This document shows, piece by piece, positions 113 to 5,206 of a stretch of 5,206 bases of DNA; the stretch's first letter is position 1, and every line of letters begins with the position of its first letter. Both the position numbers and the translations under genes were made by a program. The stretch comes from a virus (taxonomy: Duplodnaviria > Heunggongvirae > Uroviricota > Caudoviricetes): IMG/VR virus record IMGVR_UViG_2690316148_000009. The stretch is one strand, 5' to 3'. The notes below the pieces were generated by a model. It had not been told where the DNA came from. It searched no databases and was given only the letters and a program-made list of their open reading frames with translations.

Positions 113-694
113 TTACCCTATAGGTGCTACTGGCCATTCAATATCCGGTGCAGTTGATGTATCAACACGGTTCAGCAACACCCGATACTTTTTCCAGGCT
201 TCCAGCAACAAGGTTTCTTTCTCCGTTGCGATCTCCAGATCCACAGCATCCTGAAGCGGCGCTATATGCTCACTGGCTACCTGCATCAGGCTGTTTTTTG
301 TTTCTTCCGCCTCCCGGATCCGGAACAGTTTTTCTGCTTCCGTATCCTTCACCCAGGCTGTGCCGTTCCACTTCTGAAACTCCCCTTCCGGGGATAACCA
401 GGTGACATTTTCCGGTAATGAGCCGAGTTCAGAAATAAATAACGCGTCGCCGGAAGCCACGTCATAAACCGTTTTACCCCGATGATCTTCAACGAGATGC
501 CACGATGACTCATCACTGTTGAAAACAGCCACGAAACCAGCCGGAATATCTGGCGGTGCAATATCGGTACTGTTTGCAGGCAGACCTGTATGAGGCGGAA
601 TATATGCGTCACCTTCACCAATAAATTCATTAGTTCCGGCCAGCAGGTTATAAATTTTTATGGTCCGTGCTTGTTCACTCATTCTGAATGCCAT
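113..694 (-). CDS. tfa: tail fiber assembly protein (lambda Tfa family chaperone)
   Basis: The 193-aa ORF begins [62 protein letters not shown]..., which I recognise as near-identical over most of its length to phage lambda Tfa (orf-194). Its ATG (694..692) overlaps the stf stop TAA (696..694) as TAATG, and a GTGAGG Shine-Dalgarno-like motif lies about 8 nt upstream. The position immediately downstream of stf is as in lambda. Confidence 0.9.
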
Positions 695-3600
695 TATGCG
701 AGCCTCACAATATAGTTAAATGCGATGTTTTTGACGGTGTTTTCCGCGTTACCAGCAGCGTTAACGGTGATGGTGTGTCCATGTGAACCAATCGCAACAG
801 AGTGCGTATGAGCACCAATACCGACAGTATGCGCGTGTGCACCCGCAGATGCTGCTGTGCCGGACAGTGAGTGTGTATGGTTTCCTTCTGAAGATGATTT
901 ACCTACCCATTGGGAGGTGCCACTGGTTAATGAGCCACTGATACCAACCTGATTAGTCCCGCTAACTTGAGTACTCCCTGCCGGAAACATTCCAGTAGGT
1001 TGACTCCCGCTATTCGTTCTGGGCCCAGTCTGACTATGTTGGTGGGCCCCAGCTGAACTTGTAGAGCCGCTCAGACTGTGCGTATGCGCCCCGGTGTTAT
1101 TCGTGGATTTAGTGCCGTAATCAAACGACGATGTGGTTTTCGTCCCCAAATCCGTACTGGATGCGCTGGCGCTGTGGGTGTGCGATTTAATGCCATCCTG
1201 TTCCTGAGACAATACGGCACGACCACTGGCGGGCTTGCCCTTAATCGTCCAGCCACGCATATCAGGGATCACGCCTGACGGATAAGCGGCTGCAAGTTTC
1301 GGGTAAGCAGATTTGTCAAAAGTCTGCCCCTGCATCAGGGCATAACCAGACGGAACGGTATCTGATGGCCACGGGATTGGTGCACCGACTGGATAAAACT
1401 CTGCAGGAGGATGAGCCGAGGTGTAAAGCTGCGCCCACGGCGACCAGTTTGCGTCGGTCGTATCCCGTCGTGAACGAATAAATGCCGGAGCATGAGCACC
1501 GCTTGTACCACTCCAGCCGATGAGTAACTCACCTTCGCCAACGGCTGTCATCCCTTTCAGGTGAATGATATTTCCATACGCTGTTGGATATCCGTTGTTA
1601 TACACCTCGTATAACTCAAGACCTGCTGCCCCCTGCGTATTGTCTGTCAGCGCGGCTACCCGACCTTTTGAAGCCAGATTAACTGATGATACTGCTGTTC
1701 CACCTGACGGTAGCGCCCCGATCTCTGATGCCGTTGGCTTATTTCTGGAGTTATAGTCCCTTCGCCAGCCAGGTGAATAATCTGTTCCGTGATTAATATA
1801 GGTAAACTGGGCGTTGGTTGTTCCGCCACCGCTGGATGTGGTCGGAGTGGTAATGCGGATCGTCATCGCTGACTTTATCCCCATTACTTCAATGACAGCT
1901 CCGGCGAGATGAATATTACCGCAGCCAGTATCAGTAATGATTTTATTATTGCCATAAGACCAGGAACCCTTGCACATCCAGTATGGATGGTTAAATGCTC
2001 CCTGAGAATCCAGCCACTCGATAAACTGTGCAGTCGTCCAGTTTCCTGTTGTTGTGCTTACTGACCCACCGAAGGCACGGCAGGCACCAATATTTTTCGT
2101 AAAGGTGTCTTTGCCAGGGATATCCGCACCGTTCTGATCTTTCTGCAGACGTTTCTCAGCATTGTCATTGGCTGCTTTTACTGCCTTTGGCGTTGCCGCC
2201 AGCGTTTCAGACGTGCTGTTGGTCGCGCTGCTTAGCTGGATTATCCCTTTCTGTGCTGTCGTTGCATCCTGTGCGGTGTATTTCCCGTTAGCCAGGTCAT
2301 ACGCGGCCTTAACGGCTTTTGGTGTTGCCGCCAGTGACTCGGAAGTGCTGTTAGTCGCACTACTGAGCTGTACTATCCCCTTTTTCGTCGTGCTCGCATC
2401 CTCAAGCGCCACGGCGGATGCAATATCCTCTGCCCGTTTTGCCGCTGTCTCAGCGCGCGTTGCTGCAGATTCCGCCGTACTTTTGCTCTGAGCTGCTGCC
2501 GTCGCACTACCAGCAGCCTCTGTCGCCTTCGTGGATGCCGTCGTGGCGCTGCCCTTCGCTGCTGACGCCTGTCTGGTCGCCTCATCTTTTGAAGCAGACG
2601 CCGATGATGCCGATGACGCCGCCGAACTGGCGGACGATGCGGCAGCCGTTTTTGAGGATTCTGCACGGGTTTCCGACGCTTTCGCGTTCGTTTCGGATGT
2701 CTTCGCTGCGGAAGCTGACCTCGCTGCTGCCGTGGCCTGCTCAGTGGCTTCGCCAGCCTTCGTTGTGGCTGTTGAAGCGGATGATGCGGCGCTTTCTGCC
2801 GATTTTCCGGCGGCGGTGGCACTGGCTGAGGCCTGCCCGGCACTTGTTGACGCGGCACTGGCAGATAATGCAGCCGCTGTTTTTGAACCTGCCGCAGCTG
2901 AGGCGCTCTGTCCCGCTGCTGTTTCAGAAGACTTAGCGTTCGTCTCGGACGTTTTTGCCGCCTTCGCGGAATTTCCTGCCGCCGTTGCCGAGGAAGCTGC
3001 ACTACTGGCACTTGATGATGCATTCGTTTCTGAAGATTTCGCTGCCTCTTTTGAGGCCGCCGCACCCCGTGCCGAGGTGGCAGCTTCTGACGCCTTCGTG
3101 GTCGCTGTGGATGCAGAAGTGGCTGCCGATTTTTGTGATGCTGCGGCATTCGTTTCTGACGTTTTCGCGGCACTGGCGCTGGTAGCTGCCGCGCTTTTTG
3201 ATGACTCTGCAGCAGCACTTTTTGCTGCTTCACGGGCCTTTGTCGATGCCGTTCCTGCGCTGGAAGACGCTGACTGAGCCGACGACGCGGCCTGTCCGGC
3301 TGACGTGCTGGCGGCACGTGCTGAGGCTGCAGCATCGGTTGCATGAGTTGCCGCCTCGCTGGCTGATTTTTTCGCGGCTGCCGTATTCTGTGCAACCGCG
3401 GAGGCGTTACGTGACACCTCTTCCACCATCTGCTCAAAGCGGCGCAGTGCCTCCGGTCGGACATCATCCTCCGTCATGGCACCGAGAAAATCATTCAGCG
3501 TACCTGGTCTGGAACCTTCATAGACGGTAATGGTCCCGGCATGTGAAGGCGGAAAACCTTCAACCAGCAGGGTGACGCTGTACTGACCATGCTCAACATC

Positions 3601-3753
3601 CATGCTGTAACGTCCGGCTTCATCCGGATTTTCAGAGGCCACCGTGTTCACCACCATCGTGCTGCTGGTTCGTCTGGCCTTCAGCACAATGGTGCAGTTC
3701 TGTACTGGTTTTCCTGTGCCATCTTTAAGCACGCCAGAAATTTTTACTGTCAT
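694..3753 (-). CDS. stf: side tail fiber protein (lambda Stf family), intact and mosaic
   Basis: The 1019-aa ORF has an N-terminus [22 protein letters not shown]... and a C-terminus ...[31 protein letters not shown] that match lambda Stf as I recall it. It contains a long Ala/Ser/Thr-rich region with reiterated KTSETNA-type motifs, a duplicated KGI(V/I)[11 protein letters not shown](S/T)[11 protein letters not shown] unit, and C-terminal GAHTHS/GNHTHS/GAHAHT/GSHGHT His-x-His repeats typical of T4 gp37-like fiber tips. A GGTGGA Shine-Dalgarno motif sits 5 nt upstream of the ATG. The gene lies between lom and tfa as in lambda. Confidence 0.9.
2164..2382. repeat. tandem direct duplication of a ~132-bp unit inside stf (second copy partial)
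   Basis: Plus-strand segments around 2171..2268 and 2303..2400 align with a 132-bp offset at high identity. They encode [29 protein letters not shown]... (Stf aa 458-501) and [29 protein letters not shown]... (aa 502-530). Confidence 0.7.
2419..3408. repeat. GC-rich low-complexity coding repeat region of stf (Ala/Ser/Thr-rich with reiterated KTSETNA-like motifs)
   Basis: Stf aa ~116-445 is dominated by A, S and T with recurring motifs ([55 protein letters not shown]). This degenerate repetition is what produces the long spurious ORFs in the other reading frames on both strands. Confidence 0.65.
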
Positions 3754-3764: not shown

Positions 3765-3800
3765 AATAAAAAAAGCCCGCAGCAGTGACGCCACGGGCTT
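3765..3800 (-). terminator. putative rho-independent terminator downstream of lom, immediately upstream of the stf RBS
   Basis: On the minus strand the sequence is AAGCCCG-(14-nt loop)-CGGGCTT, a 7-bp stem (3800..3794 paired with 3779..3773), followed by TTTTTATT (3772..3765). It lies about 105 nt after the lom stop codon. The 14-nt loop is long, so the actual structure may differ. Confidence 0.5.
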
Positions 3801-3904
3801 CAGGACAGTGTAACTTTACGTTTCCTCAAACGCAGTTCACCCCATAAGGTGGATGAACCTGCGTATCATAACAATATTTACAGAAGATAAATCGGCGTCT
3901 GTTG

Positions 3905-4504
3905 TCAGATACGGTATCCGATACCAACAATAAATGCATCCGTTCGCCAGTCACCACTACCGGAACCTTCATAAGCAAGGTCAATGGTCACGGATTCGGT
4001 CGGGTTAAACTGCACGCCAGCCCCCCACGCCAGAGACGTGTTGCTGTGGCGACCGTCATCACTTCCGGTCAGCACATCGTGCGTTTTCCCCTTGTTGTCA
4101 GTTACGCGGAGATAATCCCCGGAGAAAGTCGACACACGGCTGTAAGCCACACCCACCATCGCATACGCGCTGAACCATTCATTCACGCGTACAGACGGCC
4201 CCGCCATCACGCTGAACCAGCGGTTACGCACGGAATCTTCATGCCAGCGGGTATCGCTGTAGTGCGTTTTTTGCTCATCCTCAGCATTGGCATAACTGAA
4301 GGACGTAATCAGCCCCAGCGCGTCCGTAAACTCATAACGGTATTTCACGTTAATCCCGTTCAGATTATCGCTGCCGGGAGCGTTCGTACGGGCATGAAGA
4401 TACCCCGCGCTCAGTGTGGACTGATGTTCAGACGCCCATGCAGGCGCACCGGATACGGCCAGGCAAATGGCTGCGGACAAAATGGCTGCACAAACTTTAC
4501 GCAT
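3905..4504 (-). CDS. lom: Ail/Lom/OmpX/PagC-family outer membrane beta-barrel protein (phage moron, lysogenic conversion)
   Basis: The 199-aa ORF has a signal-peptide-like N-terminus MRKVCAAILSAAICLAVSGAPAWA followed by motifs shared with lambda Lom as I recall it (GINVKYRYE, SAYAM(V/A)GVA(Y/H)SR, AYEGSGSGDWRTD, GIGY near the C-terminus). A GAGAGG Shine-Dalgarno motif lies 5 nt upstream of the ATG. The position between J and stf is the same as lambda lom. Confidence 0.9.
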   Translation of the reverse strand: MRKVCAAILSAAICLAVSGAPAWASEHQSTLSAGYLHARTNAPGSDNLNGINVKYRYEFTDALGLITSFSYANAEDEQKTHYSDTRWHEDSVRNRWFSVMAGPSVRVNEWFSAYAMVGVAYSRVSTFSGDYLRVTDNKGKTHDVLTGSDDGRHSNTSLAWGAGVQFNPTESVTIDLAYEGSGSGDWRTDAFIVGIGYRI

Positions 4505-4525: not shown

Positions 4526-4552
4526 AATAAAAAAGGCGCCATTTCTGGCGCC
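4526..4552 (-). terminator. putative rho-independent terminator downstream of J and upstream of lom
   Basis: On the minus strand the sequence is GGCGCCA-GAAA-TGGCGCC, a perfect 7-bp GC-rich stem (4552..4546 paired with 4541..4535) with a GNRA-type tetraloop, followed immediately by TTTTTTATT (4534..4526). It begins about 20 nt after the J stop codon. Confidence 0.6.
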
Positions 4553-4571
4553 CGTATATGGGTTATAAAAT

Positions 4572-5206
<635 letters not shown>

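Follow-up and report, generated by a model that had tools for sequence, protein, structure and literature searches.

Among the systems closest to the fibre described here, the receptor-binding tip of T4 gp37 has been crystallised (2XGF) and consists of a collar (D10) and a needle (D11). In a study in which the needle is analysed (PMC6957217), seven coordinated iron atoms are described along the axis of the trimer, and H929 from the three chains is given as one of the metal sites. Exchange of these histidines in T4 (H929A, H931A) abolished plaque formation (PMC6957217). According to a second source, HxH motifs from three chains make octahedral six-histidine iron sites in gp37 as well as in the spikes of P2 and phi92 and in the fibres of R-pyocins (PMC6116203), and the ions are thought to be reference points for folding the three chains into register (PMC6116203).

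The relationship between λ Stf and T4 gp37 belongs to textbook knowledge (PMC12617516). In T4, the chaperone gp38 is required for the folding of gp37 (PMC6957217), and the pairing of this family of fibre tips with an adjacent gene of the gp38/Tfa type has already been described (PMC9659904). Earlier genetic work, cited in that paper, had λ stf/tfa replace the functions of T4 g37/g38 (PMC9659904).

The window carries the J–lom–stf–tfa end of a lambdoid prophage

The whole stretch of DNA analysed here (the window; 5,206 nucleotides, IMG/VR record IMGVR_UViG_2690316148_000009) comes from a lambdoid E. coli prophage, of which it covers the end with J, lom, stf and tfa. The list of open reading frames and Pfam searches identified four genes, all on the minus strand:

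Upstream of lom, minus strand: 3' portion of a J-like gene for the tail tip, masked in places by runs of N
3905-4504, minus strand: lom (Pfam Ail_Lom, E = 1e-125)
694-3753 (stop included in the end coordinate), minus strand: stf, side tail fibre gene, 1019 aa (ORF; Pfam; PHROG 295)
113-694, minus strand: tfa, tail fibre assembly chaperone gene, 193 aa (Pfam Caudo_TAP, 150 bits)

This order is that of phage λ, as expected of a lambdoid Stf, and the annotation of relatives likewise places gpJ upstream and Tfa downstream. Many E. coli chromosomes contain prophages that match the whole region at about 96% identity. The DNA of stf, over 94% of its length, shows 94-95% identity to the Stf genes of lambdoid coliphages, PhiR68_2 and PhiR26_1 among them. 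The encoded protein matched PHROG 295 'tail fiber protein' with an E value of 3.8e-250. The ATG of tfa overlaps the stop codon of stf (TAATG, as read from the sequence), and the deduced Tfa protein shows 93% identity to λ Tfa and 31% to T4 gp38 (E = 3e-20). A gp57A-type general chaperone was not found in the window.

Along the Stf polypeptide, the following segments were distinguished:

3352-3753, minus strand: N-terminal (tail-attachment) domain of prophage tail fibres, phage_tail_N, aa 1-134 (Pfam PF08400, 231 bits, E = 4.3e-69, full-length)
aa ~135-450: Ala/Ser-rich shaft
2140-2402, minus strand: two Phage_fiber_2 repeats in the shaft, aa ~451-538, outer limits approximate (Pfam PF03406, 125 bits, 2 stretches, best 454-494)
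1243-1386, minus strand: Collar domain, base of the needle, aa 790-837 (Pfam PF07484, 45.6 bits vs a cut-off of 24)
1036-1182, minus strand: outgoing needle stem with HxH motifs 1-3, aa 858-906 (His aligned to gp37 H883/885, H915/917, H929/931)
880-1035, minus strand: distal tip, Ser/Gly/Thr-rich, 52 aa, presumed receptor-binding determinant, aa 907-958 (hypervariable among homologues)
775-879, minus strand: return needle stem with HxH motifs 4-7, aa 959-993 (His aligned to gp37 H966/968, 980/982, 989/991, 998/1000)
697-774, minus strand: C-terminal strand returning to the collar, aa 994-1019 (last 15 residues identical to T4 gp37)

The match of PF08400 to aa 1-134 provides the N-terminal domain that characterises a lambdoid Stf. 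Further along the protein, a direct repeat of 107 nt (2164-2270 and 2296-2402, 74% identical) underlies the pair of Phage_fiber_2 repeats, and the 14-residue Phage_fiber repeat of Pfam (PF03335) matched the His-rich end (aa 858-993) in 5 stretches with 34.7 bits, vs a cut-off of 20.

Seven HxH motifs hold all histidines of the Stf C-terminus

The His-rich end of Stf contains seven HxH motifs:

1174-1182, minus strand: HxH motif 1, H858-T-H860
1078-1086, minus strand: HxH motif 2, H890-T-H892
1036-1044, minus strand: HxH motif 3, H904-Q-H906, equivalent to gp37 H929/H931
871-879, minus strand: HxH motif 4, H959-T-H961
829-837, minus strand: HxH motif 5, H973-A-H975
802-810, minus strand: HxH motif 6, H982-T-H984
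775-783, minus strand: HxH motif 7, H991-G-H993

A preliminary description of this DNA had listed them as SHTHS, GAHTHS, GAHQHS, GNHTHS, GAHAHT, GAHTHS and GSHGHT, and each was found in the minus-strand translation. The limits given there for the whole array (784-1185) hold for motifs 1-6 but not for motif 7 (GSHGHT), which is located at 775-783, nine bases past the left limit.

All 14 histidines present in the last 179 residues of Stf lie inside the seven motifs, and the other 840 residues contain 9 histidines and not a single HxH. When the residues of the whole protein were shuffled 20,000 times, seven HxH motifs were never reached (maximum 5). The same result was obtained in 20,000 shuffles of the C-terminal 179 aa in which the 14 histidines were kept (mean 1.0, maximum 6).

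The composition of this region is biased, and the window comes from a prophage in which the upstream J gene is partly masked by runs of N, features that would suit motifs arising by chance in a low-complexity sequence rich in Gly, Ser, Thr and His, or a gene that is a decaying, functionless remnant. Such an explanation is scarcely credible: an origin by chance or low complexity was ruled out by the shuffle test, and the reading frames of stf (1019 aa), tfa and lom are uninterrupted and match their domains over the full length.

A recent DNA duplication of the HxH boxes was also considered and rejected. Tandem Repeats Finder reported no repeats in the region of the boxes, and one match of 15 nt (87% identity) between two of them was all that was detected. 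Since there is almost no DNA identity among the boxes within stf, they are not recent duplications.

The His-rich end of Stf is homologous to the T4 gp37 needle

A phmmer search of the PDB with Stf residues 780-1019 as query matched the crystal structure of the T4 gp37 receptor-binding tip (2XGF) with an E value of 3.5e-84. The match covered Stf residues 786-1019 (positions 7-240 of the query) and residues 28-242 of the 2XGF chain, that is, essentially its whole length. The second PDB match, the short tail fibre 9cuy, was restricted to the collar region, so that the Stf collar aligns both with the gp37 collar (D10) in 2XGF and with that of 9cuy.

The C-terminal modules of the window Stf, T4 gp37, λ Stf and PhiR26 Stf were aligned with MAFFT. 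The 14 Stf histidines occupy, one to one, the columns of gp37 H883/885, 915/917, 929/931, 966/968, 980/982, 989/991 and 998/1000, and the crystallised T4 fragment has no histidine outside those 14. The spacing of the motifs is identical in both proteins, with 32 and 14 residues in the outgoing stem and 14, 9 and 9 in the returning one. Identity to T4 gp37 amounts to 99 of 120 residues in the collar and outgoing stem and to 47 of 61 in the return stem. Around each HxH site, the Stf sequence is nearly identical to that of gp37. The C-terminal strand of Stf corresponds to a part of gp37 of which residues 1010-1026 are assigned to the collar domain D10 (PMC6957217). Stf thus shows homology to the whole crystallised fragment, HxH motifs in the same register, a collar with a returning strand, a variable tip between conserved stems and an adjacent chaperone gene, which are the sequence features of a gp37-type needle. 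The exact register with a solved structure also argues against chance or decay as the source of the motifs.

The preliminary description had stated that HxH repeats of T4 gp37 coordinate iron along a trimeric needle, in agreement with the literature (PMC6957217, PMC6116203), and had proposed a similar metal-coordinating needle at the end of Stf. In the alignment with T4 gp37 and λ Stf, the histidines proved to be in register with those of gp37 rather than placed elsewhere, and together with the full-length homology to 2XGF this result favours a gp37-like needle in Stf, with a presumed trimer and presumed metal ions.

A monomer model of Stf 780-1019 obtained with AlphaFold2 from an alignment of 62 sequences reached a pLDDT of 46 and a pTM of 0.18 and showed almost no secondary structure. 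Such a low score is expected for a single chain of an intertwined, metal-dependent trimer. No atomic structure of a lambdoid Stf tip was present in the PDB copy searched, as is also stated in the literature (PMC12617516), and the structures and literature covered contained no direct proof of metal binding by a lambdoid Stf.

Regarding the metal itself, the same gp37-type needle might carry Zn, Ni, Co, Mn or a mixture in vivo, depending on which of them the host cytoplasm supplies. An octahedral site of six His has no intrinsic specificity for iron, the metals are indistinguishable from sequence, and Zn was modelled into the HxH site of the T4 gp12 crystal, albeit with protein that had gone through refolding in a zinc salt (PMC6116203). 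By contrast, every natively purified HxH site cited contained iron, namely those of gp37, P2 gpV, the phi92 spike and the R-pyocin fibre and spike (PMC6116203), and the near identity of the surroundings of each Stf site to those of gp37 also speaks against another metal, which we consider improbable.

The histidines are conserved at the protein level

Conservation was determined across the database proteins closest to Stf, 120 homologues in all. The 14 His columns were 99-100% conserved, an invariance that is at odds with a chance or decaying origin of the motifs. Mean column identity to the window Stf was 95% and 98% in the two stems, vs 31% in the tip (aa 907-958), and the 121 proteins contained 48 distinct tip sequences. 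Compared with T4, a different codon was used at 104 of the 151 conserved residues, and 8 of the 14 His codons differed synonymously; these codon differences indicate that conservation acts on the protein.

The family to which this module belongs is large. Representatives of 1849 clusters (50% identity) matched at E <= 1e-3, and 268 did so at E <= 1e-30. Among the 150 matches listed, a gp37-like C-terminus was present in 129 of the 143 newly returned representatives, and those 129 carried from 4 to 10 HxH motifs, most often 7 among the matches listed.

The variable tip is embedded between conserved stems

Unlike the stems, the tip of the window Stf has no recognisable similarity to that of T4 (9/30 identical over aligned pairs) and little to those of λ (18/36) and PhiR26 Stf (17/48); to slur14 gp37 the figure is 30/51. 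DNA identity to PhiR26 Stf is 93-100% on either side and falls to about 40% across aa ~895-955. This profile is the pattern expected if tips swap by recombination between conserved His-box stems. Recombination at the 'His box' of T-even phages is the subject of older literature.

The mosaic boundary relative to PhiR26 Stf lies in or beside the His boxes that flank the tip, and 48 different tips are found between near-identical stems. Both observations would be in line with His boxes that are kept mainly as DNA recombination linkers for tip swaps and have no metal-binding role in lambdoid Stf. We regard this explanation as very improbable, given that conservation acts at the protein level, with the codon differences from T4 described above, and that the boxes are almost without mutual DNA identity in stf apart from the single 15-nt match. 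Moreover, a linker role and a metal-binding role are not mutually exclusive.

The tip allele was found in 25 of 5426 complete E. coli genomes, in 24 of them at an identity of at least 99%, and is annotated there as phage tail protein; E. coli SCU-104 (NZ_CP053284.1) is one of the carriers. Public databases already hold a protein that is identical over the 240 C-terminal residues. The allele was present in none of the isolated phage genomes of the collection searched, temperate phages included, and the nearest tip in isolated phages was that of gp37 from the virulent T4-like phages slur03 and slur14. This rare tip allele, related to those of slur03-type T-even phages, is the only mildly distinctive point of the window.

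For the non-His tip residues reported as essential in T4 (I933, N937, G938 and others; PMC6957217), no matching counterparts were found in the Stf tip, so that the receptor is not inferable from them. Because the tip is 18 residues longer than that of T4 and unrelated in sequence, the very end of the needle may also be shaped differently. It is conceivable, though we would not favour it, that the Ser/Gly/Thr-rich tip of 52 residues represents a distinct class of adhesin specificity, with a receptor different from the sites on OmpC and LPS that T4 and λ use. If true, such a tip class would document recent exchange of adhesins between virulent myophages and a temperate siphophage.

A model for the Stf needle

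[quoted passage not shown] The motifs, the homology, the one-to-one alignment of the histidines, the pattern of conservation, the linkage to a chaperone gene and the mosaic boundary were all observed directly; for Stf, we infer the geometry of the trimer, the identity and occupancy of the metal, and the receptor.

If three Stf chains trimerise as in the homologous crystal structure, each chain would start from the collar (aa 790-837), extend towards the distal tip (aa 858-906) and come back (aa 959-1019), and the product would be a thin rod of six intertwined strands. The threefold axis would have seven levels, at each of which one HxH per chain would be turned inward and the six imidazoles would hold one metal ion octahedrally; the metal is iron in T4, most likely Fe(II). 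The ions would set the register of a stem that is made of small residues and has almost no hydrophobic core, and would also rivet this stem. The 52-residue loop region from motif 3 to motif 4 would form the extreme tip and determine receptor specificity. The adjacent Tfa would act as a dedicated chaperone in folding and trimerisation. Finally, the His-box stems, whose mosaic pattern is described above, may serve as homologous flanks for swaps of tip cassettes between lambdoid and T-even phages.

From a practical point of view, the conserved His-box stems offer clean junctions (~aa 895-906 and 959-965) for grafting tips that change host range, a use of modest value, and the tip allele is a rare variant whose practical value is likewise modest.

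Comparison with known systems

The principle of an octahedral six-His site built from three HxH motifs on a threefold axis would be common to the Stf needle and P2 gpV, phi92 gp138, the R-type pyocin fibre and spike, and T4 gp12, the last with Zn (PMC6116203). These proteins differ from the window Stf in that they have one site instead of seven and different folds. Among these single-HxH fibres and spikes, the needle part of Stf had no significant sequence match in the PDB, and only the collar matched 9cuy.

With Ur-λ Stf/Tfa, the window shares the gene order J–lom–stf–tfa, the family of the N-terminal domain, the overlap between the stop of stf and the start of tfa, and a Tfa that is 93% identical. 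The C-terminal stems of both Stf proteins are identical at 108 of 121 and 56 of 61 positions. The window Stf is, however, longer (1019 aa) than Ur-λ Stf (774 aa) and has an expanded Ala/Ser-rich shaft. λ Stf also has eight HxH motifs and a 10-aa duplication (SFDYGTKTTG) in the outgoing strand, whereas the window Stf has seven motifs, like T4. The eighth motif and the 10-residue duplication, present in both λ Stf and slur14 gp37, suggest that the stem is one layer longer in these proteins. The tips differ as well, with half of the aligned positions (18/36) identical; since the receptor depends on the tip, the λ receptor OmpC cannot be assumed for the window Stf, nor can the faster adsorption known of lambdoid side fibres that bind it.

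The closest tip in isolated phages is that of slur03 and slur14 gp37 (Tequatrovirus), which are 69% identical to Stf over the whole module and have a tip of similar length (53 aa). They differ in being long tail fibres of virulent myophages, in having eight HxH motifs with the 10-aa duplication, and in a tip of which about 40% is different.

The T4 gp37 tip shares with the window Stf the collar, seven equally spaced HxH motifs, the last 15 residues and a chaperone gene downstream. In contrast to T4 gp37, the carrier is here the side fibre of a lambdoid siphophage, in which the N-terminal 780 residues are different, and the tip between the flanking HxH motifs comprises 52 aa vs 34 aa in T4, without sequence relationship (9/30). 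That Stf is related to gp37 and that HxH motifs form iron sites was already known, and the reading made from the sequence alone was right, though not new. The analysis carries little weight as a discovery; it confirms that the side tail fibre of a lambdoid prophage has the usual needle of the gp37 type, in which seven iron sites are presumed.

Gene junctions around lom, stf and tfa

The stop codon of stf, which encodes the 1019-aa side tail fibre, overlaps the start codon of the chaperone gene tfa in the sequence TAATG (window 692-696). The same overlap of stf stop and tfa start occurs in phage λ, and this arrangement suggests that fibre and chaperone are translationally coupled. At the other end of the window, masked positions (runs of N) were found at 4695-4744 and 4954-5049, where the J-like gene has its 3' part. 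Two strong terminator-like hairpins, both followed by a T run, were predicted in the gaps on either side of lom:

3772-3801, minus strand, hairpin with a 13-pair stem in the lom/stf gap
4534-4553, minus strand, hairpin with an 8-pair stem in the J/lom gap

Therefore, lom is bracketed by predicted terminator-like elements; the overall number of such sites in the region showed no excess over shuffled sequences.

Repeats and reading frames of the Stf shaft

Residues ~135-450 of Stf (window ~2400-3350) form a long shaft rich in Ala, Ser and Thr, within which short degenerate repeats of the families D1 and D4 were detected. Because codon usage is biased in this part of the gene, spurious long ORFs appear in other frames:

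2373-3467, minus strand, spurious ORF of 364 aa in a frame other than that of stf
2531-3277, plus strand, spurious ORF of 248 aa opposite stf

The shaft also has two Phage_fiber_2 repeats, which are encoded by a direct repeat of 107 nt (2164-2270 vs 2296-2402; 74% identical, 132 nt apart).

Related prophages and distribution of the tip allele

Chromosomes of E. coli ST131 (e.g., NZ_CP049085.2, 2259751-2265183) carry related prophages in which a gene annotated as 'macro domain-containing protein' lies inside the region corresponding to J–lom–stf–tfa. This region is about 870 bp longer than that of the window, from which the macro domain gene is absent.

The tip allele (window 880-1035) was rare: of 5426 complete genomes of E. 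coli, 25 carried it. In E. coli SCU-104 (L004, 1-4335), which has the same allele, a manganese catalase/ferritin-like gene cluster and ompT adjoin the tfa end of the prophage.

Predicted length of the needle and similarity of the tip in known fibres

The number of His-x-His (HxH) motifs per family representative ranged from 4 to 10 among the matches listed. The top representative match, P0121 (938 aa), contains 10 motifs and aligns to the query in two stretches; its needle may be duplicated or extended. λ Stf (λ imm21, L001 2501-3235) and gp37 of the T4-like phage slur14 (L005 562-1311) each have 8 HxH motifs, compared with 7 in the window's Stf, together with a duplication of the 10-aa SFDYG(T/S)KTT element in the outgoing strand. 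In both proteins the insertions are matched between the two strands, suggesting that the needle has one additional layer. As for the tip itself, the gp37 tips of the virulent T4-like phages slur03 and slur14 are nearer to that of the window (30/51) than any lambdoid Stf tip examined.
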